Shown here one piece after another: positions 3,256 to 24,790 of a stretch of DNA of 64,000 nt. The stretch is from Anaerolineae bacterium (GTDB lineage: Bacteria; Chloroflexota; Anaerolineae; Aggregatilineales; UBA3940), in the NCBI GenBank assembly GCA_034435015.1, contig DAOTYH010000052.1:2835-66834 (forward strand), given 5' to 3'. Position 1 is the stretch's first letter, and each line of letters starts with the position of its first letter. The notes beneath the pieces were generated by a model. The model was not told the origin of the DNA and searched no databases. It worked only from the letters and a program-made list of their open reading frames with translations. Made by a program: the position numbers and the translations under genes.

Positions 3256-3494
3256 CGTCTGGGGTTGTTGGGCTGGTCTTCCCCTTTCTCTGGTCGGCTC
3301 CCAGTTGCTCGGCGCTCAAGAGGTGATCTTAGTCATGAAGCAAATGGCGGGCCGCCTGTTTCTTTCTACAGCAGGGTCTTCCTTCTTAGTATCTCACAGT
3401 TTAAGCGGCGGCCCCTTGGCTCTGGATATGCAGAAAAGGGCTTCTTCTGTGATTCTGCCTGAGCGCTTCGATGTGTGCTTTTTGGAGGAAGGGC

Positions 3495-5012: not shown

Positions 5013-5053
5013 ACGGGGTTGAAAGCAGGACCTCTGCAGATTGATCAAGGGTA

Positions 5054-6700: not shown

Positions 6701-6753
6701 ACTAAAATAGAGACATGCATTCTACTTAGGGTAGAGCATGTTTTCCCACCTGT

Positions 6754-8592
6754 GTGGGGGTGTATTGTATGAATGATGAAAGCGTGAGCGTAACCCAATC
6801 ACAATGGCGGCGTGTCGTTGAGTGGCTGCTCTATACCCGCGTGCGTGATCCGGCGCTGGCCCGCCATAGCCGTCTAGCCGCCGCCATGCTGCTGGTCGGC
6901 GGAATCACGGCTCTGATAGGTCTGGGGCTGGGAATCGTGTTCTGGCTGAGCAGTTCCAGACTGCCCGCTTGGCGGCCCTACCTGATCGGCGCGGGTGTCT
7001 TCATGGTTCTGCTGGCAGTCATTTACCTGATCAACCGCCTTGTGAGTACGCCGCTGGCAGGCCTTTTGTTGGCTGTCCTGTTGCTGGCCGGCGACCTGCT
7101 CCTGCTGGTGGTTTCCGGGCCGGCCTCTCCGGTCTCTGTGGCCCTGATCGTGCCGGTCATTGTGGCCGGGCTGTTCAGCACGCCGGTTTCGGCAGTAGTG
7201 GTGGCCGCAGTGGCCGCAGTGGCCTATCTGCTCCTGAACCTGCGGGCTGACCCGGCTTACTTGACCCATCTTGTTCAGGGCGAAGCGGCTTTGCAGACCG
7301 GGTTGATGTACCTCAACCTGTTCTTTGTCTCTATCGTGTCATGGCAGTTTGCCCGCACGGCCCGTCAGGCCTTCAAAGAGAGCCAGCAGTTGAGCCTGGC
7401 TCTGGTCGAACAGCGTGAAGAACTGGAAGGACGGCTGGAGGCCCAGACCCGCCAGCTTCAGGCAACTGTTTCGGTAGCGCGGGCGGTAGCCGGCACACGC
7501 AATCTGGACAAACTTCTGGAAGATGTTGTCCGGCTGGTGCGCGAGACATTCGGTTACTACCATGTTCAGGTATTCATGGTAGATGAGGATCGTCAATATG
7601 CCGTCCTGCGCCAGAGTACCGGCGAGGTGGGGCAGAGACTGCTGGCAAGCGGACATCGGTTGCCGGTGGGTAGCCTGAGCGTGATCGGTCAGGTGACAGC
7701 CAGCGGGCGGGCGGTGGTGGCCCGCGATACAGACACCGACGCAGTACATCGGCGCAATGAATTGCTCCCCAATACCCGATCTGAGATGGCCGTCCCGCTT
7801 AGTGTGGGTGATCGGGTGATAGGTGCGCTGGATTTACAGAGTGTCGAGCCGGATGCCTTCCCTGAACAGGTCATCCCTACCTTGCAGGCCCTTGCCGACC
7901 AGATCGCTGTGGCTATTGAAAATGCCCGCCTGTTTGAGCAGGCTGAGCAGAACCTGCGTGAACTGCGGGAACTCAGCCATGAGGTCACTCAGCGCTCGTG
8001 GAGCGAGTTCTTGGCTGAGGCACGTGAGGAGGAAATACACCAATCTTACGGCCCAGAAACGAAGGCCATTGAGATATTCCGTAGCCGTGTGATTGAGCGG
8101 GTGTTGACATCTGGTACGGTGATTGTATCAACCGGTAAGGATGGGCGGCAGGCGTTTGTGGCCGCGCCCATCGTTGTGCGTAACGAAGTGATCGGCGTGC
8201 TGGGCGTAGAACCGGACGGGGTCCGGGAGTGGTCTCAGGATGACCTCCTGCTCATTCAGGGCATTGCTGATCGGACCGCCCTGGCTGTCGAAAATGCGCG
8301 GCTGTACCTGCAAGCACGGCGTGCCGCTGAACGCGAGCGTCTGGTCAGCTCCATTGCGGAGCGTCTCCAGCGTGCCCCCAGCCTTGCCCTCCTGCTGGAG
8401 AGTGCTACAAGGGAGCTGGCAGAGGCACTGGGCACGGAGAGTGTATACGCTGAGATCAACGTCGAACGCCCGCTCGCCCGTGCCCGTAAAGAGGTATCGG
8501 AAGAACCGGAAGTGGTGGAGGCCGAGTCGCGGCAATCGGCTGAGGATGCGGTTGCCCCGGACGAGCCTGAGGAGGCGAGAGCTGAATCATGA
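6754..8592 (+). CDS. polytopic-membrane GAF sensor protein without output domain
   Basis: Same architecture as 5054..6700. GAF-A reads FGYYHVQVFMVDE..HRRNELLPNTRSE..IGALDLQS..IENARLFE. The acidic C-terminal tail overlaps the next gene (ATGA). The true start may be ATG 6769. Confidence 0.8.
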   Translation: MGVYCMNDESVSVTQSQWRRVVEWLLYTRVRDPALARHSRLAAAMLLVGGITALIGLGLGIVFWLSSSRLPAWRPYLIGAGVFMVLLAVIYLINRLVSTPLAGLLLAVLLLAGDLLLLVVSGPASPVSVALIVPVIVAGLFSTPVSAVVVAAVAAVAYLLLNLRADPAYLTHLVQGEAALQTGLMYLNLFFVSIVSWQFARTARQAFKESQQLSLALVEQREELEGRLEAQTRQLQATVSVARAVAGTRNLDKLLEDVVRLVRETFGYYHVQVFMVDEDRQYAVLRQSTGEVGQRLLASGHRLPVGSLSVIGQVTASGRAVVARDTDTDAVHRRNELLPNTRSEMAVPLSVGDRVIGALDLQSVEPDAFPEQVIPTLQALADQIAVAIENARLFEQAEQNLRELRELSHEVTQRSWSEFLAEAREEEIHQSYGPETKAIEIFRSRVIERVLTSGTVIVSTGKDGRQAFVAAPIVVRNEVIGVLGVEPDGVREWSQDDLLLIQGIADRTALAVENARLYLQARRAAERERLVSSIAERLQRAPSLALLLESATRELAEALGTESVYAEINVERPLARARKEVSEEPEVVEAESRQSAEDAVAPDEPEEARAES

Positions 8593-10862
8593 CCACGCAA
8601 TCCAGACAACGAACACGTATTGATCTACGGGCGCTTCCCATTGCAGTGAAGCTGGCACTGACGCTGGGTCTTGTTCTGGCGCTCAGCGGTATCTTTACGG
8701 CTTGGCTGGTAGGGCGCTCATTGCGCGATGTTCAGACGCAGGTCTTTATGAGCGACCTCCAGTCTCTCAGCCGTGCTCAGGCTTTCCGGGTGGTAGATGC
8801 TCTCTCCCAAGAGATAACAGCCCTGAACCGCTTGGGGAATAATGTCAACCTGCGTGTGATTTTGGCACTGCGCCCTGTGGATGTGACCCCTTATCCCGGC
8901 ACGGCTGATCTGGGAAGCGACACGACGCTCAACGCCCTGATCAGCGGCTTCCGCGAGACGCACGGCGAGTTTCGCAGTGTAGCACTGGTGGACATCAGCG
9001 GTCAGTTGCTCGCGATTGACCCCTTGCCGCCGGCATTGGATCGTATCTCGACCGAGAACTGGACATGGTTTTACGAGGCTTATAACCGCGGGATGGGGGC
9101 GGCTTATATATCAGGTCCTCTGGATGACGGGTTAACCGGCCTGCGGGGTATCCATATTGCCGTGCCGATCTATAGCGGCACGGGCGATAATCGTCTGCTT
9201 GGTGTCCTGTACGGCATTTGGGATGCCAGCAATGTGCTGGGTGTTGCTCAGGCCGCCGGTCAGCGGGAGTCGTTGCTGGTCTCTCCAGAGGGTCTAATGC
9301 TGGCGGCGCCCGGCGATCTGATCGGCTCTCCCTTGCCTGCCGATCTAACGGCTCGGATAAATGCCTCTCCTTCTGGTGCTTTCCTGTACACTGACCCGGC
9401 TGGCAGGCGGTGGCTGTACGGGTATGTCAGCCTGAGTGAATTAGGGCTGGCGGAAGGGCCTGCCTCAAGCTTAGGCTGGGTGGCCATCACCCGCGAACCG
9501 TTCTCAGCAGTTGAGGCCACTGTAGCCGCCCTGCTGAACGCCTTGGCGCTGGCTACTCTGGCCAGCGGCGCCATGATTGTTCTGCTGACCCTGATCTTTA
9601 CCCGCATACTGCTCTCGCCACTGCGGCATCTGACACAGGCCGCCGTGCGGCTTCAGGCGGGCGAGCTGACTACTCCCGTCCCTGAGCTTCCTATGGATGA
9701 AGTGGGGCGTCTGGCGGACGTACTGCGCGGCTTGGTAGGGCGTCTGCTTTACCGGGTGGGTCAGCTTCGTGCCGCCGTGCAGGTTTCGCGTGTGACAGCC
9801 CAAACCCTCGACATCAACCAGTTGCTGGAAGGTGTTGCGCGGGCGCTGGCAGATCAGTTTGGCTACCCCCTCGTCCATATCTACCTGCTGGATGCTTCTG
9901 GTAAGAATGCCCGCCTCCATGCTGTAGCCGGTGATCGCGGCGGATACTGGTTGCGGGTCGGGCATCGCATCACGGTAGATGAGACCACGCCGGTAGGGCG
10001 GGCTATCCTGTTGCGTGAGACCCAGTTTAGTAGCGATCAGGAACTGCCGATCTGGCCCGGTGCGCCTGTCAAGCCGGCGCAACTGGCCCTCCCGTTGCAG
10101 GCCGGCGGACGCGCGCTGGGGGCCTTACATCTGATCACCAGGCCGATGACGGTGTTCGAACAGGAGGACATTGACCTGTTGCTCCTGATCGCCGACCAGC
10201 TCAGCGCGTCAGTTGAGAACGCGCGTCTGTTTGAGCAAAGCGCCGCTAACCTTGCTGAGATCGAGGCCCTGAACCGCCGCCTGACTCGTCAGGGGTGGGA
10301 AGAGTTTCTGGAGAGCAGGGGGGATGCTCTGCGCCATACGCTGGACCCCGATCAGCGCTGGCCTCAGACGCCTGAGGAAATCCGGCGGCGCAGTGAGGTA
10401 AAGGCGGTTGTCTATACAGATGCCGATGGGCGCTCGGTGTTGGCCGCCCCGCTGGTTCTGCGCGGCGAGACGGTCGGGACGCTGGCCGTGACCCGCCCTG
10501 CCGGGGAGGGCTGGTCGCGGGAAGAGGTGTCCCTGCTGGAATCCGTGGCGGCCCGTATGGCGATAGTAGCTGAGGGCATCCGTCTGGTCGAGGAGTCAAC
10601 ACGCCGCGCTGAGATTGAACAGCGTGTAAGCGAAGTCTCGGCTCAACTGCTCCAGCGTGCGGCCAGCGTGGATAGTGTCCTGCAAAATGCCTTGAGCCAG
10701 TTGAGCGGGGCGCTTGGCTCTGATCATGTGTCCCTGCGGATCGGCCCTCCGCCGGTTGAGGGCGATCATCAGATCTCGCCGCGCAGTACAGGCGGCACAG
10801 GCCCGGACGGCTTCGGCAAAGGCGGTGTTGAGGGGGATGGAGATTTGAGCAATGGCCGTTGA
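8589..10862 (+). CDS. TM-periplasmic Cache-like-TM-HAMP-GAF sensor protein without output domain
   Basis: Two TM helices flank a domain of about 290 aa (..LRGIHIAVPIYSG..LLGVLYGIWD..WLYGYVSL..). HAMP reads PLRHLTQAAVRLQAGELTT..EVGRLADVLRGL. A diverged GAF-A (FGYPLVHIYLLD..SVENARLFE), a second GAF-like module and the stub follow. The start overlaps the upstream stop (ATGA). Confidence 0.8.
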   Translation: MTTQSRQRTRIDLRALPIAVKLALTLGLVLALSGIFTAWLVGRSLRDVQTQVFMSDLQSLSRAQAFRVVDALSQEITALNRLGNNVNLRVILALRPVDVTPYPGTADLGSDTTLNALISGFRETHGEFRSVALVDISGQLLAIDPLPPALDRISTENWTWFYEAYNRGMGAAYISGPLDDGLTGLRGIHIAVPIYSGTGDNRLLGVLYGIWDASNVLGVAQAAGQRESLLVSPEGLMLAAPGDLIGSPLPADLTARINASPSGAFLYTDPAGRRWLYGYVSLSELGLAEGPASSLGWVAITREPFSAVEATVAALLNALALATLASGAMIVLLTLIFTRILLSPLRHLTQAAVRLQAGELTTPVPELPMDEVGRLADVLRGLVGRLLYRVGQLRAAVQVSRVTAQTLDINQLLEGVARALADQFGYPLVHIYLLDASGKNARLHAVAGDRGGYWLRVGHRITVDETTPVGRAILLRETQFSSDQELPIWPGAPVKPAQLALPLQAGGRALGALHLITRPMTVFEQEDIDLLLLIADQLSASVENARLFEQSAANLAEIEALNRRLTRQGWEEFLESRGDALRHTLDPDQRWPQTPEEIRRRSEVKAVVYTDADGRSVLAAPLVLRGETVGTLAVTRPAGEGWSREEVSLLESVAARMAIVAEGIRLVEESTRRAEIEQRVSEVSAQLLQRAASVDSVLQNALSQLSGALGSDHVSLRIGPPPVEGDHQISPRSTGGTGPDGFGKGGVEGDGDLSNGR

Positions 10863-12585
10863 TAGCCCGACTCAGGTTGAAAAGAAAGAAGGGGGTATCC
10901 GGCGCCTGTTCAGGTGGCTGTTCTCGGTGCACTACCCTTATGCAGACGTGTTGGAGCACCAGCGCGCTACGATAGCCGTAGTCATTACCGTGGTGCTGGC
11001 TGTGACAGGCCTGCTGGGGGGGATAGGCCTTAAGGTTATATTTGGCGGAGAGGCTTATTATACTGTCTCTGCCGGGCTTATACTGGCTGGTGTCTGTGCA
11101 TTGCTGTATCTCATGATACAGCGGGGGCGTCTCAGGGAGGCCAGCTATGGGCTGATACTTGCCCTGCTGACTCTCAGCTTTGTCCCGGAGTTGCCGGCTA
11201 CTATCCTTAAGCCGCTGTTCACGCCCTTTGTCCTTCCGGTGATGCTGGCCGCTTTTCTGCTTGGCACGTGGCCTGCCTTCATCACCGCGTTTGTCTCAGC
11301 GGTATTGATTGCTGTCGTCCTGTATGTGCATCTGCCCGGTTTTGCCACAGGCCTGCCCGCCGTACCGCCTGATCTGCTCTTTGAGGTTCTCTATCATCTG
11401 CTTACCTTACTGATGGTGTCGGCGCTGGCAGGCCAGATGGGCAACATCCTTAAGCGGTGGGCGCAATCGGCACAGCGCACAGCACGCCAGCTTGAGGCGG
11501 CGGCGGTCGTTAGTGAGACAGCCGCCACAGCGGCCAGCCTCAGCAAATTGCTGAATGTGGTGGTTGAACGTATCCGTGAAGCGTATGGCTTCTACCACGC
11601 TCAGGTCTTCCTGCTGGACCCGGAGCGGCGCATGGCCCGTCTTGAGGCCAGCACGGGCAAGGCCGGCGAGGTACTGCTGGCACGCGGTCACGCCCTGCCG
11701 GTGGGTTCGCAGTCAGTTGTAGGGCAGTGTACGTATCGGGGCGAGCCGGTGGTGGTCAACGACGTACTGCGCAGTACCATCCACCGCCGTAATGAGTTAT
11801 TGCCATTGACACGCGCCGAGCTGGCCCTGCCCCTGGTCGCAGGCGGGCGCGTGATCGGGGCGCTGGACGTGCAGAGTACGGTCCCCAATGCGTTCCAGCC
11901 GGACGATGTCCGCTCGATTCAGGCAATGGCCAATCAGCTTTCAACCGCCATTGAAAAGGCACGGCTGGTGGATGAGTTGCAGGCTCGTGCGGCAGAGAAC
12001 CAACGCCTCTACGAGGAGGCACAATCCAGCCTGCGTCAGTTTGAGGATTTGAGCCGCCGACTGACGCGCGAAGGCTGGAGTGATTACCTGCGCACCCGCC
12101 GCCTGCGTGGTTCGCTGGGATATACCCTCTCCGGTCAGCAAGTCCAGCACGACGCAGGATGGACTGCCCCCATGCGTCAGGCCTATCAGAGCGAGAGCAG
12201 TGTGGTGATCCGGCAGGGTCAGCAGGCCCATATTGCCGCCCTGCCCCTGCGCGTGCGCGGCGAGGTCATTGGTGTATTGGAGATCGAGCGGGGCGGCAAC
12301 CGTCCTTGGACGGACGATGAACTTGAGATGGCAGAAACATTAGTTGAGCGTCTTGCGCTGGCTGTTGAAAATGCCCGGCTCTATGAGCAGGCTACGCTCT
12401 CTGCCGAGCGTGAGCAATTGGTCAACCGCCTCACCCAGACCGTACAGCAGGCGGGGAGCATTGACGATGTTCTGCAGACCGCGCTGACAGAGCTTAGTTC
12501 GGTGCTGGGGGCTTCGCGCGGGGTAGTGCAGATCAGCCCGAAGGTGGAGCAGGCCTCCGGTGAACAGCCGGATAATGGCGCGTAG
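10852..12585 (+). CDS. polytopic-membrane GAF sensor protein without output domain
   Basis: About 6 TM helices, GAF-A (YGFYHAQVFLLDP..HRRNELLPLTRAE..IGALDVQS), linker LSRRLTREGWSDY, second module (LPLRVRGEVIGVLEI..ALAVENARLYEQ) and stub. The start overlaps the upstream gene by 11 nt. Confidence 0.8.
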   Translation: MAVDSPTQVEKKEGGIRRLFRWLFSVHYPYADVLEHQRATIAVVITVVLAVTGLLGGIGLKVIFGGEAYYTVSAGLILAGVCALLYLMIQRGRLREASYGLILALLTLSFVPELPATILKPLFTPFVLPVMLAAFLLGTWPAFITAFVSAVLIAVVLYVHLPGFATGLPAVPPDLLFEVLYHLLTLLMVSALAGQMGNILKRWAQSAQRTARQLEAAAVVSETAATAASLSKLLNVVVERIREAYGFYHAQVFLLDPERRMARLEASTGKAGEVLLARGHALPVGSQSVVGQCTYRGEPVVVNDVLRSTIHRRNELLPLTRAELALPLVAGGRVIGALDVQSTVPNAFQPDDVRSIQAMANQLSTAIEKARLVDELQARAAENQRLYEEAQSSLRQFEDLSRRLTREGWSDYLRTRRLRGSLGYTLSGQQVQHDAGWTAPMRQAYQSESSVVIRQGQQAHIAALPLRVRGEVIGVLEIERGGNRPWTDDELEMAETLVERLALAVENARLYEQATLSAEREQLVNRLTQTVQQAGSIDDVLQTALTELSSVLGASRGVVQISPKVEQASGEQPDNGA

Positions 12586-12597
12586 GGAGGGGCTGTT

Positions 12598-14793
12598 ATG
12601 CGGCGCTTCTTAAGCAGATTAGCTTGGAATAACCTGTCTATTCGGGTCAAGACAGGTTTGATGTTCTTGTTGCATATGTTCCTGATCAGCCTGATGGCTC
12701 TGGCGGCCTTCCTGTCTTTGCGTAATGTGAGCCAGCGGGTTGAGGGGGCTATTACCACGGCGGTTGAGATGCGCTCCCTGAGTCAGGATATGCAGCTTGA
12801 TACTCAGCGGCTTCAGAATCTAGTCTCCACTGTCCAGAGCAGTTTCGATACCCAGTTCTATACTCGTATGTCTGCGAACTGGCAGTCCAGTTATACGGAG
12901 CTGGCTCAGAGGATACTGGACAATGCCGCCCGCCTGGAAGATTTGAGCGATCAAGCTGTCAGCCCCTCTGACCGGATGGAGGTGCTCGCTGAGATTCGCG
13001 CCATCGAGGCCAATGTGACAGCCACCGAGCAGAGCTTCACGGCCATGCTGGACGCAGTGGCTCAACTCTCCACCCCGCGTGAGGGTGCCATCCCCTTGCT
13101 GGATGCCTACGGTGTTGCGCTGGAGGAAGTGACCATTGAGCAGGGCAACAACGACCTGCTTTCAAGATTTCTCCTTATGCGCAGTCTGGAGGAAACCTTG
13201 ATCGAGGCAGGCGATCAGACCGTCCTGGCCAGCTTCCGAGAGGCCGCCAATGCCTACCGGGAGGTGTACGACCGTATCCCCCTGACAGAGCGTCAGGCGG
13301 GCATTCCCACTGCCCTGAACAACTATGTGGCACAAGCCGAAGAGGTCGTCCGCCTTATAGGCCTCTTACGAAACAACCACGACGCCTCTCAGCTCTATCT
13401 GGGGTACGTTCGTGATGCGGCTTCCCGTCTGGGCACTATTACAAACGCCCAGTCCGCCTCTCAGCTTGCGGCTGTGCGGCAGATTCAGGGCGCGACTGTC
13501 TTCACCCTGTTGGCTGGCTTGATCATTACACTGGTCGTGGGCGGCACCTCCTCATATCTCTTTGGCCGCGCGATATTCAACAGCCTTAGCAACTTGCTTT
13601 ATGCCGCACAGTCACTGGAGAAGGGAAACCTCGACGCACGGGCTGAGGTAAACGGCGAAGACGAGTTCAACCGGCTGGCCGCCGCCTTCAATACGATGGC
13701 ACTTCAGCTTCAAGGGTTGATCAGCGGGTTGGAACAACGTGTCGCTGAACGTGCCCGCGACCTGAGCATCACGGCTGAGATTGGGCGGGCGGTAGTCGAG
13801 TTCACAGAGCCGCGCGAACTGATGAACAATGTGATTGAGCTGATCCGGCAGCGATTTGGCTTCTATCATGCGCAGGTCTTTTTGATTGATGACGCAGGAG
13901 AGAGAGCCAACCTTGTGGCCAGCACAGGGGCGGCAGGCCGGGCTTTGCTGGCCCGCCGGCACTACCTTGAAGTAGGATCGCGGTCGGTGATTGGTCAGGT
14001 GACGGCAACGGGTATGCCGGTGATCGCCTCTGATACCGATGTCAGCGCTATCCACAAGCGCAATGAGCTGTTGCCCGACACGCGCTCTGAGATGGCTCTG
14101 CCCATGCGTATTGGCGACAGAGTGATAGGCGCGCTGGATGTTCAGAGTGTGGCCCCTAATGCCTTTGATGAAAGCTCGGTGGCTGTCTTCCAGATCGTGG
14201 CTGACCAGCTCGCTATCGCGTTGGAGAGTGCCCGTCTTCATGCTCAGCTTTCTGATGCACTGGCTCAGCTTCGGGAGATCGAACGGCGTGCCACACTGGA
14301 AGCATGGCAGACCTTCCGCCAGTCCCGCAGCCCGAACGCTCCGCTTGGCTATCATCTGCGTGAGGGTGAGGTCATGCCCCAGCCTCCTGAGGCGATGCCC
14401 TCCCCCCTCAGTGAGGCTATTCGGACCGGGCGTGTCGTGAGCTGGCGGGATGGCGGTGAGGAGATCAATCTGGCTGTTCCCATTAAGGTACGAGGTGAGA
14501 CAGTTGGGGCCTTTGGCTTCGGAGGTGAGGCGCTGTACGATCTGACCGAGGAGGATATTGCACTGCTTGAAGCGGTAGCTGACCGTGTCGGGCTGGCGAT
14601 TGAGAACCTCCGTCTGGTAGAGCAGACCGCCCGTCGTGCCGAGCACGAGCAGATCGTGAACGAGATCACGGCCAAGATCGTAGGTTCAACCGATGTGAAC
14701 CAGATTTTGCAGACGACCGTAAGAGAGTTGGGCCGCGTGTTGCGTGCGCCCCAGACCAGCGTGCAACTGCGGAAAGAGTATGAGCAGAAATGA
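12598..14793 (+). CDS. TM-helical periplasmic domain-TM-HAMP-GAF sensor protein without output domain
   Basis: Two TM helices flank a predominantly helical domain of about 270 aa. HAMP reads LEKGNLDARAEVNGEDEFNRLAAAFNTMALQL. GAF-A reads FGFYHAQVFLIDD..HKRNELLPDTRSE..IGALDVQS. A second module and the stub follow. GGGAGG RBS before ATG 12598. Confidence 0.8.
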   Translation: MRRFLSRLAWNNLSIRVKTGLMFLLHMFLISLMALAAFLSLRNVSQRVEGAITTAVEMRSLSQDMQLDTQRLQNLVSTVQSSFDTQFYTRMSANWQSSYTELAQRILDNAARLEDLSDQAVSPSDRMEVLAEIRAIEANVTATEQSFTAMLDAVAQLSTPREGAIPLLDAYGVALEEVTIEQGNNDLLSRFLLMRSLEETLIEAGDQTVLASFREAANAYREVYDRIPLTERQAGIPTALNNYVAQAEEVVRLIGLLRNNHDASQLYLGYVRDAASRLGTITNAQSASQLAAVRQIQGATVFTLLAGLIITLVVGGTSSYLFGRAIFNSLSNLLYAAQSLEKGNLDARAEVNGEDEFNRLAAAFNTMALQLQGLISGLEQRVAERARDLSITAEIGRAVVEFTEPRELMNNVIELIRQRFGFYHAQVFLIDDAGERANLVASTGAAGRALLARRHYLEVGSRSVIGQVTATGMPVIASDTDVSAIHKRNELLPDTRSEMALPMRIGDRVIGALDVQSVAPNAFDESSVAVFQIVADQLAIALESARLHAQLSDALAQLREIERRATLEAWQTFRQSRSPNAPLGYHLREGEVMPQPPEAMPSPLSEAIRTGRVVSWRDGGEEINLAVPIKVRGETVGAFGFGGEALYDLTEEDIALLEAVADRVGLAIENLRLVEQTARRAEHEQIVNEITAKIVGSTDVNQILQTTVRELGRVLRAPQTSVQLRKEYEQK

Positions 14794-17700
14794 GTAGCAC
14801 AAAACCTTCTCAACCCAAGCGCAGGGCACGCAGCCTCCGGCGTACCCTGCAATTGATCTTCATTGCTCTGGTGGCTTTGCCGGTTCTGACGCTCACCGTC
14901 GTCTCAATGCTGAACTCGGTCAATAACAGCCGGCAGGCCGCTGTCAACCGTTTGAACACGCTTGCCGACATCCAGACCCAGGTGCTGGAGCAATGGGTCT
15001 CTGCCGCCCAGAACAACCTGAGCCAGAACCTCGCTAATCCGGTCATCGGCCCGATCATCGTCCGCTTGGTCACAACCCCTCCAGAGGAGATGACCACTGC
15101 CGCCTATGCCAGCAACCGTTTGATCTTCATTAACCATGCGCGCGTGGTGATCGGCGGGCCGGATTCGCCGTTCAGCCGTATTGTCCTGACGGATATGGAT
15201 GGTATCGTGCGCGGCGCCGACTTCCAGACCCTTCTGGGGCGCGACTGGAGCATGGAGCCGTGGTTCAATGCGGCCATACAGGCCGGTGATGCGGTTGCAT
15301 TGGTAGGCCCCTACCGCGACCCTGTAGACGGCAAGGACAGCCTGTATTTCTCAACCACAGTACGCACGTCTGAGGGTGTGGTAGTAGGCGTGTTGTGCGG
15401 CAGAGCGACGCTTGACCCCTTGAAGAGACTCATGGAACGAGTACCGCCGCTGGGTGAGACAGGGGAATACCTGCTGATCCGGCAGGGCCAGCAGTATGTC
15501 ACGCCGCCGCGCCATGACCCCGGCGCCCGGCTGGCAACTGATGAAATTGTCTCGACCGTCCTGAGTGGAAATAACGGTAGCGGCACTTGGCGCGATTATC
15601 GGGGAGAGGAAGTCATTGGGGCGTACCGTTGGGTTGCCCCGCTGAACATGGGCTTGATCGTCAAGCAGGACAGCGTCGAGGTACTAGGCGGCCTGTGGAG
15701 GCTGGTTAGCTCGTCGGCCATTATTGGTATGCTGTTTGTGGGGTTAGGCGCATTGCTTAGCTTTGTCTTCTCTGAGCGCCTGCTAGGCCCGCTGGAGGCC
15801 TTGAGCCGAGTAGCGATGCGTGTGTCCGCTGGCGACCTGAACCTGCGTGCGCCTGAAACGGATGCAACCGAGCTTAGGCGGCTGGCAGACTCGTTCAATG
15901 CGATGACCGCCCAGATCAGGTCTATGATCGAGAGCCGTGAGGAAACGATCCGAGAGAGGACCCGCGAGCTGGCTATTGTCGCCCAGATGGGCCGTGTGAT
16001 TGCCGCTGAAACGAACCTTGAGCGCCTGCTTGATCTGGCTATTGGCCTCATCCGCGACCGGCTGGGGTACTATCACGTTCAGATCTTCATGGTGGATGAC
16101 CTGAAGCAGAACGCGGTCCTGCGTGCCAGTACGGGCGAGGCCGGGCGTCAGTTGCTGGCTCTTGGTCACCGACTGCCGGTGGGGTCACGCTCGGTCGTTG
16201 GTCAGGCCGCTGGTCGGGGTGAGCCGGTGCTGGCATCGGATACCCGTTATGCGGACTATTGGCGGCCTAACCCCCTGTTGCCTGACACACGTGCCGAGCT
16301 GGCAATTCCCCTGCTCACGGGCGATCAGCTTATTGGGGTGCTTGACATCCAGTCTACCGAGCCGGAGACCTTCAGCGAAGACACGATTGCCGTGCTTCAG
16401 ACGCTGGCTGACCAGTTGGCGGTAGCTATCCGCAATGCGCAGTTGTTTGGGGAAAAGGAGAGCCTGCTGTCGGCCTCGCTTGACCTGACCCAGATGCTCA
16501 CCCGTGAGGGCTGGGGTGACTACGTGGCACAGCGCAGGGGCCAGAATGGCGCTATCGGCTTTGAGTATAACCTGAGCGAAGTACGTCCTCTGGATGGCTC
16601 CTCAGGAATATCGGGGCAGGGTATCAGCCTTCCCATTGCACTGCGTGGTGCGATCATCGGTCAGCTTGAAGCCCAGCTACCGGAAGGTGAGACTTGGACC
16701 GAGGAGGACAGACAGCTAGTCAGTCAGGTGCTCGACCGGGTGGCCCTGGCACTCGAAAACGCACGTCTGTTCGAGCAAACTCAGATTTCTCTGGCAGAGA
16801 CCAACCGCCTCTATCAGGCCAGCCAGCGGATCGCCGCCGCTGACACCGTCAAGGACCTGGTAGAGGAGTTGATTGACGTTGCCAAGATTGACATCGCCGA
16901 CCAAATCACCCTCTACCTGGTGGATGATCCGGCTGAGCCGCCCGGCGACCGGTGGGTTGAGGCGGCAGGGAGTTGGGTCCGTGACCCGCATAGCGCTTTG
17001 GGCCAAATGCCGTCCCGACTGCGCACCAGTCAGCCGCCCTTGAAGGGAATTGAGAGCATACCCCTTGACGGGCGGGTGATTGATGATCTGACTGCCGCTG
17101 AGGATATGGCTCCAGAAAGCCGTGCCCAGCTTCAGGAGCTGGGGGTCAGGTCTATGGCTGTCTTCCCGCTGGCGGCTGGCCGCCGCACGCTGGCCTGGCT
17201 GGTGATCTACAGCTCTGCTCAGGGTAGTGCTTTCACTGAGGGCGATGTCCGTTTCTTTGAGACGATCACCGACCAAGCGGCCTCAGCACTTGAAGGACTG
17301 CGTCTGTTCGAGCAGACTCAGATTCGTGCCCGCCGTTTGCAGGCCACCAATGAGGTCTCACGGGCGGCATCCTCGATCCTGAACCCCGACATCCTACTGC
17401 CGCTGATCGTAGATCGCATCAGCGAGGCGTTTGGATACTACCATGTCCAGATATTCCTGGTGGATGAGCTGGGCGAATGGGCTGTGCTACGGGCCAGCAC
17501 GGGTGAGGTCGGTCAGGAGCTGTTGCGTCGTAAACACGCATTGGCTGTCGGCTCGCGTTCGGTGATCGGGCAGGTGACGGCGCTGGGCGAAATCGTTATT
17601 GCCCGCGATACTGACGTGGACGCGGTCCACCGGCGCAACGAGTTACTGCCCAACACACGGGCTGAGATGGCAATCCCGCTCAAGACAGGCGACCGTGTCA

Positions 17701-20390
17701 TTGGGGCGCTGGATGTGCAAAGCACGCAGGTCAACGCCTTCGATGCAGAGGCTCAGGCCATCCTGCAATCACTGGCCGACCAGATTTCCGTGACTCTTGA
17801 GAATGCCCAGCTCTTCCAGGAAATCCAAGAGCGTGTGGCTGAGCTGACAACCGTTAACCTCGTTTCGCAGACAGTCTCTCGTGCTGAGACGTTGGACGAC
17901 CTGTATGAGGTCGTGACAACGCAACTGATGCGCACGTTCGGTGCTCAGTATGGCTTCTTGGGTGTGCTGGGCAAGGACAACCTGCTCCATTTCCCGATCT
18001 TCATTGAAGGAGGGGAGCGGCTCGAGTCCCCGCCGCCGCAGCCGCTGGGCGAGGGCCTCAGCGGCCACGTCATTCGTACCAAACAGGTGCTCCTGCTCAA
18101 TGAGAATCTCCCCCAAGAAGCTGAACGGCTGGGTGCGCGGATTATCGGCGAGATGCCTAAGAGCCTGCTGGCCGTCCCCTTGACCCTTGGGGATGAAGCT
18201 GTCGGCGTGCTGAGCATTCAGGATGCCGAGAAGGAACATGCCTACGGTGAGGCTCATATCCGCCAGTTGACCACGCTGGCCGCCTATATTGCCATCAAAA
18301 TCCGCAACGCCGAACTGCTTGAAGAGGCTCAGCGGCGGGCGGCTGAACTTGGCTTCCTGTTCAACCTGACACGGGCCGCCGTCTCCACTTCTGATCTGGA
18401 TGAGGCTCTCTCGCATGTGGCGGAGGTTCTGCACAGAGAGATCGAGGGGGCGGAAGCGGCAGTCATCTATCTGGCTAATGCTGAGGATAACTGCCTTGAC
18501 CCGCGTGCGGCAATCGGCTATGGACGTGACATTGCCCTTCGGCAGGGACGTATCGAGATGGGTGAAGGGCTGGTTGGTATGGTCGCTGTCCAGGGAAGGC
18601 CGCTGGTCATCGGCGATGCATGGCAGGAGGGGCCGGGCGGAAATGGTAGTGGCGGACGGACGCGATCAGCGGTGCTGGTTCCCCTCATGGTGGGCGATAT
18701 GCTGATCGGCGTCCTGACGGTTGAGAGCACACAGCCCAACGCCTTCGGCGAGAGCGAACTGCGTCTGCTGGAGGCGGCCTCTGGTACGCTGACGGCAGTG
18801 ATCCAGAATGACCGTCTGCTGGAGCAGATCACCCGTGCCAACGAGCAGTTGCGTGAGCTTGACAAGCTTAAATCCCAGTTCCTTGCCAACATGAGCCACG
18901 AGTTGCGCACACCCCTCAACTCGATCATCGGTTTCTCGCGTGTCATGCTGAAGGGGATAGACGGTCCGCTGAATGATCTTCAGGTTCAGGACCTCACTAC
19001 CATCCATCAGAGCGGCCAGCATCTGCTGGGGCTGATCAATGACATCCTTGACCTGTCCAAGATCGAGGCGGGCAAGATGGAGATTCAACCCGAATATATT
19101 GACTTGGTTGAGATCATTGAGGGTGTAATGTCCACCGCCAAGGGCCTGGTCAAAGATAAGCCCATCCAGCTCTTCAAGGAGGTCGAGGAGGGACTGCCTC
19201 AGGTCTATGGCGACCCGTTGCGCGTGCGGCAGGTACTGCTGAACTTGGTTTCTAATGCCGCCAAATTCACCAAAGAGGGGAGCATCACTGTTCGTGCCGT
19301 CCGCAAAGACTTCGATCCAGTCACGCTGGAGCCGCCGCGTGTTCAGGTTGATGTGGCCGATACCGGTATAGGGATCGCGCCGAAAGATATGGAGAAACTG
19401 TTTGTCGCCTTCCAGCAGGTGGACGGGTCAAGCACAAGGCAGGTCGGTGGAACAGGTCTTGGGCTGGCGATCTCTAAGCAGTTTATCGAGATGCATGGCG
19501 GGCGCATCTGGGTAGAGAGCCAGCTAGGGGTTGGCTCGACCTTCAGCTTCACCATACCGCTTCATCCTCCCAGCGTGCCGGTCGCTGAGCAGGAGCCTGT
19601 CGTTCTAAGGCCGGCTTCTAGTGAGGGACAGCCGGTTGTGCTGGCGGTAGACGACGAGCCGGGCGTGCTTGATCTGTATGCCCGTTATCTGGAAAAGGCA
19701 GGGTATGCCCTGATCGGGTTGAACAGCGCAAACGATCTCCTGCGGCATGTACGCGAGATGCACCCATCAGCTATCGTGATGGACCTGAACCTGCCGGGCA
19801 AGAGCGGCTGGGATGCTATCACCGATCTGCGCCGGTTCGATGATACCCGTAACGTGCCGGTCATCATTTGCAGTATCGAGGATGAGCGCCGGCGCGGCAG
19901 TCAGGTAGGGGTGGCTGACTATCTGGTCAAGCCGATCATCGAAGATGAGTTGCTGGAAGCCCTCAGCCGTGCGGTGAACGGCATGGTTTCGCCGCCTGCT
20001 ACGGGGCTGGATGTCTTGGATGTCCTGATCATTGACTCGGACGAACAGCATGCGCGTGCCGTTGAGGGCGTGCTTGTGCAGTCAGGCCGTTACGTGGTCC
20101 GCCGGGCCGCCATGGGCTTTGAGGGCTTGCAGGCTATTCAGGATCGTAAGCCGGACGTGGTTATCTTGGAGCTTGACTTGCCTGACATGGACGGCTATGG
20201 CCTGCTTGTCTCCATGCGTTCGCATGCCGATACACGTGATATTCCGGTCCTGATCATGACGGGGCGCGAGCTGACCAGCGATCAGCTTGGCCGCCTCGAC
20301 GGCAAGACAACGCGCTACCTGAGCAAGGCGATCTGTCAGGATGTGCGCTGGGCTGACCATCTGTCAGCGGCGCTTGAGAGTCTGCGTTAG
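14790..20390 (+). CDS. 1866-aa hybrid sensor histidine kinase (Cache-like, HAMP, six GAF-type modules, HisKA, HATPase, two receivers)
   Basis: TM, periplasmic domain, TM, then HAMP (..RLADSFNAMTAQI..). Two copies of the GAF-A module (LGYYHVQIFMVDD.. and FGYYHVQIFLVDE..HRRNELLPNTRAE..). H-box FLANMSHELRTPLNSI. ATP-lid DTGIGI and GGTGLGLAI. Receivers with IVMDLNLPGKSG and VILELDLPDMDG. The ATG overlaps the upstream stop (ATGA). Confidence 0.9.
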   Translation: MSSTKPSQPKRRARSLRRTLQLIFIALVALPVLTLTVVSMLNSVNNSRQAAVNRLNTLADIQTQVLEQWVSAAQNNLSQNLANPVIGPIIVRLVTTPPEEMTTAAYASNRLIFINHARVVIGGPDSPFSRIVLTDMDGIVRGADFQTLLGRDWSMEPWFNAAIQAGDAVALVGPYRDPVDGKDSLYFSTTVRTSEGVVVGVLCGRATLDPLKRLMERVPPLGETGEYLLIRQGQQYVTPPRHDPGARLATDEIVSTVLSGNNGSGTWRDYRGEEVIGAYRWVAPLNMGLIVKQDSVEVLGGLWRLVSSSAIIGMLFVGLGALLSFVFSERLLGPLEALSRVAMRVSAGDLNLRAPETDATELRRLADSFNAMTAQIRSMIESREETIRERTRELAIVAQMGRVIAAETNLERLLDLAIGLIRDRLGYYHVQIFMVDDLKQNAVLRASTGEAGRQLLALGHRLPVGSRSVVGQAAGRGEPVLASDTRYADYWRPNPLLPDTRAELAIPLLTGDQLIGVLDIQSTEPETFSEDTIAVLQTLADQLAVAIRNAQLFGEKESLLSASLDLTQMLTREGWGDYVAQRRGQNGAIGFEYNLSEVRPLDGSSGISGQGISLPIALRGAIIGQLEAQLPEGETWTEEDRQLVSQVLDRVALALENARLFEQTQISLAETNRLYQASQRIAAADTVKDLVEELIDVAKIDIADQITLYLVDDPAEPPGDRWVEAAGSWVRDPHSALGQMPSRLRTSQPPLKGIESIPLDGRVIDDLTAAEDMAPESRAQLQELGVRSMAVFPLAAGRRTLAWLVIYSSAQGSAFTEGDVRFFETITDQAASALEGLRLFEQTQIRARRLQATNEVSRAASSILNPDILLPLIVDRISEAFGYYHVQIFLVDELGEWAVLRASTGEVGQELLRRKHALAVGSRSVIGQVTALGEIVIARDTDVDAVHRRNELLPNTRAEMAIPLKTGDRVIGALDVQSTQVNAFDAEAQAILQSLADQISVTLENAQLFQEIQERVAELTTVNLVSQTVSRAETLDDLYEVVTTQLMRTFGAQYGFLGVLGKDNLLHFPIFIEGGERLESPPPQPLGEGLSGHVIRTKQVLLLNENLPQEAERLGARIIGEMPKSLLAVPLTLGDEAVGVLSIQDAEKEHAYGEAHIRQLTTLAAYIAIKIRNAELLEEAQRRAAELGFLFNLTRAAVSTSDLDEALSHVAEVLHREIEGAEAAVIYLANAEDNCLDPRAAIGYGRDIALRQGRIEMGEGLVGMVAVQGRPLVIGDAWQEGPGGNGSGGRTRSAVLVPLMVGDMLIGVLTVESTQPNAFGESELRLLEAASGTLTAVIQNDRLLEQITRANEQLRELDKLKSQFLANMSHELRTPLNSIIGFSRVMLKGIDGPLNDLQVQDLTTIHQSGQHLLGLINDILDLSKIEAGKMEIQPEYIDLVEIIEGVMSTAKGLVKDKPIQLFKEVEEGLPQVYGDPLRVRQVLLNLVSNAAKFTKEGSITVRAVRKDFDPVTLEPPRVQVDVADTGIGIAPKDMEKLFVAFQQVDGSSTRQVGGTGLGLAISKQFIEMHGGRIWVESQLGVGSTFSFTIPLHPPSVPVAEQEPVVLRPASSEGQPVVLAVDDEPGVLDLYARYLEKAGYALIGLNSANDLLRHVREMHPSAIVMDLNLPGKSGWDAITDLRRFDDTRNVPVIICSIEDERRRGSQVGVADYLVKPIIEDELLEALSRAVNGMVSPPATGLDVLDVLIIDSDEQHARAVEGVLVQSGRYVVRRAAMGFEGLQAIQDRKPDVVILELDLPDMDGYGLLVSMRSHADTRDIPVLIMTGRELTSDQLGRLDGKTTRYLSKAICQDVRWADHLSAALESLR

Positions 20391-20430
20391 GCAGGTTTTC
20401 TTGTCTGTATCAGTTAGGATTGTAATGGAT

Positions 20431-20460
20431 GGGTGCGGGTTTTCTCCTGCACCCTTCTAT
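20431..20460 (+). terminator. hairpin downstream of the hybrid kinase gene
   Basis: GGGTGCGGG, loop TTTTCT, CCTGCACCC (9 bp, one G-U), followed by the T-rich TTCTATT..CTTTTTATTT. Located about 40 nt after the kinase stop codon. Confidence 0.35.
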
Positions 20461-20510
20461 TACCCTTCTGCTTTTTATTTACAAGCTATTATTCCAAGAG
20501 AGCGTAGAGT

Positions 20511-22178
20511 ATGACCATTGTCCGTGTTCAGACCCATTGTCTGCGCTGTGGCTATGCAGAAGACTACGAACGTCCCCTGTTGGCTTGTCCGCAATGCGGC
20601 GAGACTTACTTGGATGCCCAGTATGTGCTGGAAGAGGGGCTTCCGTGGCCGGAGAGACTGCGGGATCGCCCCCCGACCATGTGGCGCTACCGCGAGTTGC
20701 TCCCCCTGCGCGACGACCTGAACATCGTCAGCTTGGGCGAGGGTGGTACTCCGCTGATCCGCTCCGAGAGTCTGGCCGCTATGCTGGGCCTGCGCCACCT
20801 GTATATTAAGGACGAGCGGCAGGGGCCGACTGCCTCGTTTAAGGATCGGCAGGCTTCGCTGGCCATTTCGACGATGCGCGAGCTGGGGATCACTGAGGCG
20901 GTAGTAGCCAGCACAGGTAATGTCGCCATCGCCTATTCAGCTTATGCGGCCCGCGCCGGCATCAAGCTGTGGGCTTTTATCATCAGCAGTATCCCCCCAG
21001 AGAAGATGCGTGAGATCACGCTCTATGGCACTGAGCTGGTCAAGGTGACCGGCACATACGATCAGGCCAAGCAGGTGGCTTCCCGCTTTGCTGAGAGCAA
21101 GGGTCTTTACCTTGATCGAGGCATCAGAAGCATCGCCGCTAAAGAGAGCATGAAGACGATTGCCTTTGAAATAGCGGAGGAGCTGGGGAAGATTTACGGC
21201 CCCTCGCCAAGCGGTACGCCGTGGCGTACCCCAGACTGGTACATTCAGGCTGTCAGCGGCGGGCTGGGGCCGATTGGCGTAGTCAAAGGCTTCCGTGAGC
21301 TGGAGGCCGCCGGCCTTTCCAACAGTGTGCCGAAGCTGGCCAACATTCAGTCTACTGGCTGTGACCCAATGGTTCAGGCTTTCCGCGCCGGTCTGGAAGA
21401 TGCGCCTCCCTTCCCGTATCCCAAGACCCGTATTGCCACAGTGGCTACCGATGTGCCCGGTGTGGCCTATAAACTGCTCCGGCAAGAAGTGCTGGAGAAC
21501 GGGGGGGTCTTTGAGTCAGTCAGTGATGAGGAGGCTTTCCGCGCCCTCAAAACGGTTGCCCGGCTGGAGGGGCTGTCGGTTGAGCCGGCGGCGGCGCTGG
21601 CTTTTGCGGGCCTGTTTAAGATGGTCCGCCAGAAAATGATTGACCCGGACGAGATCGTGGTGGTCAATTGTAGCGGTCATACTTTCTCAGTTGAAAAGCA
21701 CATCCTGGGCGATGAACTGGGCCGTGACGTGGATGTGACACCCGCCGCACGGCCTGCCGTGCCGCATGAAGGCCTGCTGGCCGCGCTGGAGACAGTGGAT
21801 CGGCAGATCAGCAAGGTGGTGGTGATTGAAGATGACCGGAGCGCCTCCGAACTGATGGCCCGTATCTTGCAGGCCTACGGCGTCCCGGAGGTATTGCAGG
21901 CCCCGGACGGGAGCGCGGGCATCCAGATGGTACGTCAGGTGCGCCCTGATCTGGTGGTGCTCGACCTGATGATGCCGGGGATAGACGGGTTCGGCGTCCT
22001 TGACCACCTAAAAAGTGATGAGAGGCTCCGCGATGTGCCGGTAATCGTTGTTACCGCCAAAGACCTGACCAATGAGGAACGCGCCCGTCTGAAGGGGCGT
22101 GTGCAAAGCCTGCTTCAGAAGGGTTCATTTATTGACGAGGCGATCCTGCAAGGGTTGATTGATGAGAAGCTGGGTTAG
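20511..22178 (+). CDS. threonine-synthase-like fold-type-II PLP enzyme fused to a C-terminal response-regulator receiver
   Basis: N-terminal Cys4 ribbon CLRCG..CPQCG. WRYRELLP, SLGEGGTPLI, the PLP-lysine motif TASFKDRQAS and the glycine loop AVSGGLGP. From about nt 21812 a complete receiver: VVVIEDD, LVVLDLMMPGIDGF, VIVVTAKD. Confidence 0.8.
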   Translation: MTIVRVQTHCLRCGYAEDYERPLLACPQCGETYLDAQYVLEEGLPWPERLRDRPPTMWRYRELLPLRDDLNIVSLGEGGTPLIRSESLAAMLGLRHLYIKDERQGPTASFKDRQASLAISTMRELGITEAVVASTGNVAIAYSAYAARAGIKLWAFIISSIPPEKMREITLYGTELVKVTGTYDQAKQVASRFAESKGLYLDRGIRSIAAKESMKTIAFEIAEELGKIYGPSPSGTPWRTPDWYIQAVSGGLGPIGVVKGFRELEAAGLSNSVPKLANIQSTGCDPMVQAFRAGLEDAPPFPYPKTRIATVATDVPGVAYKLLRQEVLENGGVFESVSDEEAFRALKTVARLEGLSVEPAAALAFAGLFKMVRQKMIDPDEIVVVNCSGHTFSVEKHILGDELGRDVDVTPAARPAVPHEGLLAALETVDRQISKVVVIEDDRSASELMARILQAYGVPEVLQAPDGSAGIQMVRQVRPDLVVLDLMMPGIDGFGVLDHLKSDERLRDVPVIVVTAKDLTNEERARLKGRVQSLLQKGSFIDEAILQGLIDEKLG

Positions 22179-22213: not shown

Positions 22214-23257
22214 GTGGATCAGGCCGCAAATCGCGCCAAGGGAGTGGCCGCCGCACTGCTGACACCAGTGCTGATGGGTATGGCTCCCATCTTTGGCAAG
22301 CTGGCGCTCCGCTCTGGTGTTGACCCTTATACGCTGACTGCGTTACGCACCTGTCTGGCGGCACTAGCGCTGTGGGTGATCTTTGCCCTGTTTTACCGGC
22401 GTTACCTGTATATCTTCCCTGCCGGCCTGATCGGCACGGTCGCAGTAGGGGCCATCAACGGGCTGGGTTCACTGCTGTATTACAACGGCCTCCTGCTGCT
22501 GGATAATGCTTCGCTGGCTCAGCTCCTCAACATGCTGTATGTCGTCTTCGTCATGCTGTTGACACGCTTCTATGGCCATCAAATCTCGAAGTTGAGCCTG
22601 CTCAGGATAGCCCTAGCTCTGACAGCGGTCTATTTGCTGGTAGCGCCGACTGAAGGCTATGCCCGGCCTCCTCTTCATTGGGCAGGGGTAGGTTTGTTGA
22701 TCGGGGCGGCCTTCGCGTATGCCCTGCATGCCTTCCTGAGCCAGCGTGTTATGTATGAAATGCCCGCCCCTACTATGGCGTTGTATGCCCTGACATGGAT
22801 GGGGGCAACCGTTCTGCTTGCCCGGCTGGTTTATGGCGTACTTTTCCCGCTGAGGTGGGAGCCGGTTGTGCCGGACGGCTGGTGGTTTGTCATGGGGCTG
22901 ACGCTGGTTACAGCCGTGGGGCGGGTGACTCTTTTTGCCGGCGTAAGGACTCTGGGTAGCCTGCAAACACTCCTGCTCAATGTGGGTGAATTGGGCGTGA
23001 CGCTGCTGGCCGCGTTCATGTGGCTGGGGGAGCGGATGACGCCCATTCAGTGGGTCGGGATGGCCGTACTGGTGTTGAGCATGATGCTTTCGCGCTGGGA
23101 TGGGCAGGTACGCGATGATGTGTACCGCCCCCTGCCCCATCCCGTCCCTTTTGGCGGCCTGCCCAGAGACAGAGGCCCTCTGAAGCCCAACGCTTTCTCG
23201 ACCGTGTCGCGGGTATACCGGCGCAGGCCCGGTACCGGCTCAGACGGGCAGAAATAG
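22214..23257 (+). CDS. EamA/DMT-superfamily transporter
   Basis: About ten hydrophobic helices in two similar halves with a C-terminal hydrophilic tail. Begins 35 nt after the ThrC-like-REC gene. Confidence 0.7.
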   Translation: MDQAANRAKGVAAALLTPVLMGMAPIFGKLALRSGVDPYTLTALRTCLAALALWVIFALFYRRYLYIFPAGLIGTVAVGAINGLGSLLYYNGLLLLDNASLAQLLNMLYVVFVMLLTRFYGHQISKLSLLRIALALTAVYLLVAPTEGYARPPLHWAGVGLLIGAAFAYALHAFLSQRVMYEMPAPTMALYALTWMGATVLLARLVYGVLFPLRWEPVVPDGWWFVMGLTLVTAVGRVTLFAGVRTLGSLQTLLLNVGELGVTLLAAFMWLGERMTPIQWVGMAVLVLSMMLSRWDGQVRDDVYRPLPHPVPFGGLPRDRGPLKPNAFSTVSRVYRRRPGTGSDGQK

Positions 23258-23259
23258 GC

Positions 23260-24591
23260 TTATGCGGGCATGCGGGCCGCTTTGTTAAACCCCTGCCAAG
23301 CCAGAGCGTACAGCACCCCCTGCCTCCTTCCCACACGAGCTGAGCGCACCTGTTCCAGCCAGCGGGCTTCCGCCCGGTCGGCTTCTGTGAAACAACGTGC
23401 CGAATAGACAGCCCGATCCTCAATAGGCGCAGTCCTGAGGGCCTGCGCTTCTTCAATGAAGCGGCGCTCAAGCTGATCGCGCTCTTCCCTGTAAAGAGCT
23501 GTCAGGGCAGAGTAGTTGCGCAATGTGGCACGGTGGAGTGCCTCGTGACGCCAGTAGAGTGTCGCCTGATCGTATGTCTTAGAGGGAATCGGGCCGGTGT
23601 CGGGCAGGTCGGCCCCCAGCCATACCGGCTTGAAGATGCTGGTGCAAGGGGCCGCTGTGCCTGTCACGTAGTGAGTCTGGACATCCGTTCCTAGATGCGA
23701 GACCAGCGACCCGGCTGACTGACTGCCCCGAATCGGGCCGAAGCCTGCATGAGCGCACACTTCGAAGTTTGTCAGGCCGTAGGCAGGACTCCAATCGGGG
23801 CCTGCCTTCGGGCCGTGATCGCGCAGTGCCTGCATGACCGTTTCCACCGTGATCTTCCCCGCCTGTGACTCCAGCAAATCGGTTGTGCGGCAGTGGCGCT
23901 CTCTGGAACGGCTGAAAGTCGTGTAGATGAAGTCGGAGTAGCAACGGGCAAAATGGAAATCCTCGCGCCCTTTGCACCATCCCCGCTCGATGGCGGTGCT
24001 GACCAGCCCCTCGGAGGCCAGGTCCCATCGGTCGCCTATGGTCAGCCCGTTTGAGATAGTCCGGATACCCTTGACCTGCTCGGCAACCCATTGACGACCA
24101 ACTGTTTCGAGCACCCAAGCGTCGGTTGGATCAGCAATCAGAAAGCTGTTGTGGTAGTAGGTGGGATGATCCATCCCGCAGTTGCCGCCCTGTCCGTAGG
24201 TTTCAAGCAACGAGGTGATCACATTCAGCGCCTCGCGTGCGGTCCGGGCGCGTTCCAATGCCAGCCGCAGGAAGTCCATCCCGATCAAGCCCGGCTTCTT
24301 CTCGTAGGGCAGTTTAGCAAACACGGCCTCGTTGCCAATTGTGACGCCATGCTCGTTAGTGCCCATTTCAGCGCCCCATATCCAGAAGGGCTTAGCAAGC
24401 AGTACCTCATAAGTTTCCTCGACCTGGGGTATCTTGATGTAGGTGCATTGAACCATGCTGTCGGCTGGATGGCATGTCCGTGGGATACGCAGCAGATGGT
24501 GAGCCTCATTGGGTTCTCGGTCGGAGTTTTTGCCGAAAACGGTCACGCCGTCAGCGGTTACACTGCCAGTTGCGACAACTGTATCACACAT
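23260..24591 (-). CDS. peptidase C69 family (secernin/dipeptidase-like Ntn hydrolase)
   Basis: The N-terminus MCDTVVATGSVTADGVTVFGKNSDREPNEAH matches the Cys-nucleophile start of C69/secernin-type enzymes. The ORF track extends to 24630, but the Met-Cys start is the functional N-terminus in this family. Confidence 0.65.
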   Translation of the reverse strand: MCDTVVATGSVTADGVTVFGKNSDREPNEAHHLLRIPRTCHPADSMVQCTYIKIPQVEETYEVLLAKPFWIWGAEMGTNEHGVTIGNEAVFAKLPYEKKPGLIGMDFLRLALERARTAREALNVITSLLETYGQGGNCGMDHPTYYHNSFLIADPTDAWVLETVGRQWVAEQVKGIRTISNGLTIGDRWDLASEGLVSTAIERGWCKGREDFHFARCYSDFIYTTFSRSRERHCRTTDLLESQAGKITVETVMQALRDHGPKAGPDWSPAYGLTNFEVCAHAGFGPIRGSQSAGSLVSHLGTDVQTHYVTGTAAPCTSIFKPVWLGADLPDTGPIPSKTYDQATLYWRHEALHRATLRNYSALTALYREERDQLERRFIEEAQALRTAPIEDRAVYSARCFTEADRAEARWLEQVRSARVGRRQGVLYALAWQGFNKAARMPA

Positions 24592-24790
24592 ATCATTCTT
24601 CTCCATGAAGATAGAACGGCTGATTACCAAAGGGGAAGCGCGAGAGATAGAAAAAAGCCCTCTTTGCCACGCATAGTATATCGTGTGGCATAGTCCCTAC
24701 AAGCTATGGTCTGTTTGAGGACATCGAATCTCACTTGCCAGATGCCCTCTTTCTGAGTAGACTGGTCTCATCCAACCCATCCTATTCTAT

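Follow-up and report, generated by a model that had tools for sequence, protein, structure and literature searches.

The gene at positions 20511-22178 of the window, by which we mean the whole stretch of 64,000 nucleotides of Anaerolineae DNA that was analyzed, encodes a threonine synthase (ThrC)-like, pyridoxal phosphate (PLP)-dependent enzyme that is fused to a complete phospho-receiver (PALP-REC). It belongs to a conserved family of such fusions, which is linked to histidine kinase genes and to a gene for an EamA transporter. We interpret the product as a response regulator with a PLP enzyme as its output: enzyme activity would be gated by phosphorylation, the substrate would be a non-phosphorylated amino acid and the flux would be linked to transport. 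This interpretation is in our judgement reasonably, though far from securely, probable.

PALP-REC is apparently a so far undescribed instance in which a signaling pathway targets an amino-acid enzyme directly. Enzymes with a fused receiver are already known, and what seems new is the ThrC-like PLP enzyme as the partner. In response regulators of the CheB, PleD, RpfG and PP2C types, the receiver gates a covalently linked enzyme that is encoded beside a kinase, whereas in PALP-REC the output would be a PLP enzyme of amino-acid metabolism and the receiver is C-terminal. The outputs of two-component systems are overwhelmingly transcription, c-di-GMP turnover and chemotaxis, and a large, clade-wide family of receiver-PLP enzymes would extend this list to small-molecule metabolism that is controlled directly and post-translationally. 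The literature searched yielded no paper on a regulator that combines PALP and REC, on the fused clade or on ThrC in Anaerolineae, and no description of a kinase-enzyme-kinase-transporter module, in keeping with the original prediction that a PLP enzyme as a two-component output is uncharacterized. Anaerolineae are filamentous, abundant and poorly cultured bacteria that are common in wastewater sludge and sediments, and PALP-REC offers a tractable entry into their signaling.

Architecture of the fused gene and its surroundings

The following features are located in the window:

2186-2611 and 2707-3255, + strand: two single-domain receiver proteins (Response_reg, E 1.7e-28 and 8.6e-19)
3471-14793, + strand: six tandem, partly overlapping GAF/HAMP/dCache genes (Pfam)
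14790-20390, + strand: hybrid histidine kinase of 1866 aa (Pfam: dCache, HAMP, five GAF, HisKA, HATPase and two REC domains)
20431-20454, + strand: GC-rich hairpin, terminator- or attenuator-like (fold of the 120-nt spacer)
20511-22178, + strand: PALP-REC gene, ATG start, 555 aa
20538-20597, + strand: Cys4 zinc ribbon C10/C13/C26/C29 (invariant in 111 homologs; codons checked)
20727-21671, + strand: ThrC-like fold-type-II PLP domain, residues 73-387 (Pfam, PDB sequence and fold matches, clade motifs)
20841-20843, + strand: PLP lysine K111
20850-20852, + strand: Q114, the Q of DRQ
21681-21809, + strand: linker, disordered over residues 391-420 and followed by the helix EGLLAALE at 420-427 (AF2 pLDDT, conservation in 111 homologs)
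21810-22175, + strand: receiver domain
21963-21965, + strand: phospho-acceptor D485
22214-23257, + strand: EamA/DMT transporter of 347 aa (Pfam: EamA E 1e-18, two repeats)

The genes in 2186-23257, from the two receivers through the six GAF proteins and the kinase to PALP-REC and EamA, read as one signaling cluster. Within the 555-aa product, the Cys4 ribbon and the fold-type-II PLP domain that follows it are joined to a complete receiver by a disordered linker. Pfam assigns residues 73-387 to PALP (E 5.6e-63) and residues 436-538 to Response_reg (E 7.6e-19; 68.4 bits against a cut-off of 30.2), which bears out the original prediction of a PLP enzyme joined to a receiver in a single reading frame. 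The motifs quoted at that stage are all present, both in the PLP part (C10/C13/C26/C29, SLGEGGTPLI, TASFKDRQAS with K111, and AVSGGLGP) and in the receiver (VVVIEDD, VVLDLMMPGIDGF and VVTAKD). The four Cys residues, K111, Q114, E440, D441, D485, T515 and K537 are invariant in the full-length homologs (111/111). The last five align with D12, D13, D57, T87 and K109 of CheY, respectively, and form the full phospho-acceptor quintet; by this alignment and this invariance, the canonical receiver with an acidic pocket that had been proposed holds. The AF2 model has a mean pLDDT of 80.4, with values below 50 for residues 391-420. In the helix that precedes the receiver, G421, L422, L423 and L426 are invariant among the 111 homologs. 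The linker with EGLLAALE is missing from relatives that lack a receiver (REC-less), and we therefore assign this helix to the receiver module.

The six GAF-array proteins (513-757 aa) carry no kinase core or other output domain. In most of the related (Anaerolineae) loci, the kinase is likewise preceded by homologous GAF genes, and L041, L052, L071 and L072 have the same pair of receiver genes upstream of their GAF genes. A hybrid kinase directly before the fused gene had been predicted as well, and it is confirmed by its Pfam domains and its kinase boxes: the H-box (SHELRTPL) and the N, G1 and G2 boxes are intact, and both receivers have their acceptor Asp. The kinase core spans about residues 1355-1600, and no HPt domain is detected by Pfam in this 1866-aa kinase. 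The idea of an amino-acid-sensing dCache, by which the system would sense its own product, is unsupported, as the kinase carries EPWF at the position where the dCache_1AA motif presumably has RxWY.

The spacer between the kinase and PALP-REC (20391-20510; 120 nt) folds at -42 kcal/mol (z = -4.8) and is more stable than 200 out of 200 shuffles. Seven of the 9 bp in its hairpin stem are GC pairs, and behind the stem lies a weak T-rich tail. The terminator-like hairpin that had been noted at 20431-20460 is thus real, with its boundaries at 20431-20454. A riboswitch or leader reading of the spacer was dropped, as no Rfam family matches it. This structured spacer is specific to the clade with a gap between the kinase and PALP-REC. 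On the other side of the fused gene, the EamA gene starts with GTG at 22214, exactly the 35 nt past the stop codon at which a DMT gene had been reported. A gene for a Peptidase_C69 dipeptidase (23260-24630, - strand) is convergent with EamA and is conserved only among the close relatives of the window (L001-L005 and L008).

A conserved kinase-enzyme-transporter module

The ORFs of 86 loci were annotated with profiles that derive from the proteins of the window. Module counts refer to the 85 non-redundant loci in which a fused gene is present, the denominators being those among them with enough flanking DNA. A recurrent order is observed, comprising GAF-only proteins, a giant multi-GAF hybrid kinase (1200-2900 aa), PALP-REC, a REC-HisKA-HATPase kinase (~420 aa) and EamA. 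The giant kinase ends at the start of the fused gene in 56 of the 67 loci, and the kinase link is thereby much stronger than the single window shows. Many of these junctions overlap by 1-4 nt or leave less than 10 nt, and in the deep-branching P0121 the start overlaps the end of a kinase gene that encodes 2753 aa. The REC-kinase lies directly downstream of PALP-REC in 47 out of 69 loci, the ORF at 11662-12906 of L006 being one example, and EamA is found downstream in 55 out of 69, by which the transporter gene that had been put forward as a partner proves to be conserved. No other family is common to more than 10 loci in an all-against-all clustering. The window's clade has lost the second (REC-)kinase and contains the 120-nt hairpin spacer.

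This linkage (56/67 loci) suggests the adjacent multi-GAF hybrid kinase as the cognate kinase, which would phosphorylate D485; in most relatives, the small downstream REC-kinase may add to this phosphorylation. The phosphorylated receiver, together with its N-terminal helix (420-427), would then shift its contacts or its dimerization, and the ThrC-like domain would thereby be turned on or off. Such gating of the enzyme by receiver phosphorylation is what the architecture points to. Among the points in favor of the output-enzyme reading is the neighborhood of REC-less relatives, which includes amino-acid transport genes: some of these relatives are convergent with genes for an SDF transporter and for an amino-acid-binding protein (SBP_bac_3/PG_binding), and others adjoin a GAF-PAS gene. 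The reading is weakened by the C-terminal position of the receiver, which is unusual in regulators with an output domain, and by the absence of an HPt domain while the kinase is a hybrid. Deviations in the receiver itself weaken it further, as the position of the switch aromatic residue (Y106 in CheY) is an invariant Leu in the fused clade and the usual Lys-Pro of receivers is Lys-Gly. Finally, it is weakened by the AF2 model of the 555-aa protein, in which four of the five receiver β-strands are seen, β5 and the α4-β5-α5 region are of low confidence and no interface between the receiver and the PLP domain is given.

A C-terminal receiver is also found in hybrid sensors, and PALP-REC may accordingly belong to a phosphorelay, with its PLP domain as the input and with amino-acid binding or turnover tuning the (de)phosphorylation of the receiver. 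The receiver would in that case be a phosphate sink, or a connector from the large kinase to the REC-kinase. The position of the gene between two kinases in 47 of the 69 loci fits such a role, as does the module itself, in which neither an HPt domain nor a DNA-binding regulator is conserved. Nonetheless, we regard it as unlikely. The invariance of all PLP catalytic residues suggests that the enzyme really turns over a substrate; in the window's clade, the gene and EamA are still kept without the second kinase; and the REC-less relatives persist as stand-alone enzymes.

The PLP domain in relation to threonine synthase

The best sequence match in the PDB is the ThrC 1uim (E 4e-42), in which K61 aligns with K111. 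The predicted fold compares to ThrC 2zsj and 1uim with a TM score of 0.84-0.86 (0.86 for 2zsj) and to the cysteate synthase CapA2 (9k3c) with a TM score of 0.73. The fold-type-II PLP fold and the Schiff-base lysine of ThrC are thus both present. Conserved in the fused clade are the PLP lysine and N137, together with the glycine loop and, where the pyridine N1 is contacted, a Ser/Thr. The scores on curated models are all below their cut-offs: 248.3 bits against 303 for PRK08197 (Zn-ribbon ThrC), which is the closest model, 152.4 against 167.1 for TIGR00260 and 114.5 against 324.9 for TIGR03844 (cysteate synthase). Of the archaeal-type ThrC/cysteate-synthase branch to which the enzyme had been assigned, the ThrC-like part stands, while cysteate synthase is rejected on its TIGR03844 score. 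Like PALP-REC, cysteate synthase is ThrC-derived and has an N-terminal extension, but the two are only 24% identical.

Five solved ThrCs have in common the motifs DRG, STGNT(S/A)A, NSxN(P/S)xRxEGQKT and GN(A/L)GN, which we take to be the O-phosphohomoserine phosphate and PLP phosphate sites. The fused clade instead has DRQ, STGNVA, D-R-G-x6-7-KESMKT and SGGLGP, which are invariant or nearly so. PALP-REC is like the bacterial ThrCs (1uim, 2zsj, 2d1f and 6cgq) in its PLP fold, the Lys in SFKDR, the STGN loop and the pyridine-N1 Ser/Thr. It differs from them by STGNVA for STGNT(S/A)A, SGGLGP for GNAGN and a replaced NSxNPxRxEGQKT, and further by its N-terminal Zn ribbon, DRQ instead of DRG, its C-terminal receiver and its signaling-operon context. 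In the Thermus ThrC structures of Omi et al. 2003, T88, N154, S155 and R160 reportedly hold the phosphate of the substrate. In a loop alignment that contains a one-residue indel, the Thr88 position is an invariant Val and the Asn154 position an invariant Asp in the fused clade, and no conserved basic substitute for the lost phosphate-site residues is found in this clade.

Because the curated cut-offs are missed and the ThrC signature is replaced, we read the PLP domain as a diverged paralog of ThrC and not as the housekeeping enzyme. DRQ had originally been seen as pointing to a paralog, and it indeed marks a distinct paralogous clade. In an NJ tree (no support values), the fused clade falls within the Zn-ribbon ThrC-like radiation, apart from canonical ThrC. 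The PRK08197 family shares with PALP-REC the Cys4 ribbon and a ThrC-like domain (248 bits), yet a true member such as P0180 has the canonical motifs and reaches 337 bits on TIGR00260, and the same tree sets the fused clade on a branch of its own. The nearest canonical Zn-ribbon ThrC, P0170, comes from Thermoplasmata archaea. As members of the fused clade score 142-181 bits on TIGR00260 and straddle the cut-off, their names in public records switch from ‘threonine synthase’ to ‘pyridoxal-phosphate dependent enzyme’ and back. An annotation that hinges on a few bits at a cut-off could mislead predictions of threonine prototrophy for Anaerolineae.

PALP-REC could also be the genuine housekeeping ThrC of Anaerolineae, equipped with a regulatory receiver in the way that plant ThrC has a SAM-binding domain. 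In favor are the ThrC fold and best matches to ThrC, a very wide distribution and good conservation of the gene within the class, some members that score above the TIGR00260 cut-off and bear the name threonine synthase, and the LeuA allosteric domain present in related ThrC-like proteins of the Zn-ribbon kind. Against this stand the replaced signature, including the invariant Asp and Val, TIGR00260 scores of about half those of true ThrC, and the gene context, which in the loci examined is always a signaling operon and never adjacent to hom or thrB. In addition, the same clade is rarely found, in REC-less form, on cyanobacterial-looking contigs, whereas cyanobacteria are reported to have other ThrCs (PMC12172450); the ‘moonlighting ThrC’ of Microcystis described in that paper belongs to a different cyanobacterial lineage. 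A housekeeping role is in our view quite improbable. Neither hom, thrB nor a canonical thrC is seen in the 86 loci, and a motif scan for SFKD[RL]G or N..R.EGQKT in all ORFs of these loci and the window finds no canonical ThrC. A different, non-canonical Zn-ribbon ThrC-like paralog (SYKDRG, without the NPxR motif) is present at 13937-15034 of L034, ~4 kb downstream of the PALP-REC module in one Chloroflexota MAG.

For PALP-REC as a phosphorylation-gated output enzyme, the ThrC-like domain would have a remodeled distal pocket. Its substrate would most likely be a non-phosphorylated, Ser/Thr/homoserine-type amino acid, on which it would carry out a β/γ-elimination or replacement; the formation of threonine from O-phosphohomoserine would be less likely. 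Flux through the enzyme may be coupled to the neighboring EamA carrier, which may export the product. In a bolder extension, the module is a self-contained signal-production circuit of filamentous Chloroflexota, in which a PLP enzyme, switched on by a multi-GAF kinase through direct phosphorylation, makes an amino-acid-derived product for export by EamA. This product might serve as a signal between cells that the dCache/GAF sensors detect in turn. We consider this extension speculative and doubtful; if true, it would represent a kinase-gated autoinducer-type synthase without a transcription step.

Regulatory domains on a ThrC-type core also occur in plant ThrC (SAM domain) and in LeuA_dimer fusions. 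In those proteins a bound metabolite exerts control, whereas the control of PALP-REC would proceed by phosphotransfer. P0232, P0261 and P0270 (~611 aa) are the LeuA_dimer cases, in which this allosteric domain is attached to a Zn-ribbon ThrC-like enzyme; the Pfam scan covered P0232.

Distribution of the fusion and its variants

The 120 best homolog clusters (58-100% identity, ~555 aa) contain both domains without exception (120/120). A second homolog search added ~105 fused clusters, which brings the total to more than 200 protein clusters. The spread and neighborhoods of the PALP plus Response_reg architecture, which the original prediction had singled out for a search, comprise at least 597 species-representative genomes with a relative of the fused gene (one genome per species) and the conserved signaling module described above. 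The best 80 of these at least 597 genomes, for which taxon names are available, are all Chloroflexota and nearly all Anaerolineae in the broad sense. Among these 80 are Anaerolineales, Aggregatilineales, Promineifilaceae, Ardenticatenaceae, Caldilineaceae, Thermoflexia and Phototrophicaceae, and a few are labeled just Chloroflexota or Chloroflexia. Complete Anaerolineae genomes with the gene include CP070811.1 and CBDCXQ010000001.1, and the 1.3-Mb JGI contig Ga0226835_1000002 has it as well. Clustering at 50% yields several deep fused lineages, of which P0121 and P0122 have a second receiver. These data support a fusion that is genuine and ancient. An assembly or frameshift artifact, a concern raised from the start, is practically out of the question, as a single ORF with an identical layout and an invariant linker motif recurs in hundreds of independent assemblies.

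The NJ tree (no support values) places REC-less proteins within the fused clade, and this position implies that their receiver was probably lost secondarily. Three such members (L087, L089 and L090), which are rare, lie on contigs that look cyanobacterial by their neighboring genes (phycobilisome linker, DUF561 and DUF2301). A degenerate-looking receiver is seen in P0128 (562 aa), a deep-branching fused member, with a Pfam score of 27 bits, under the cut-off, and VLVAHSDD in place of the acidic pair.
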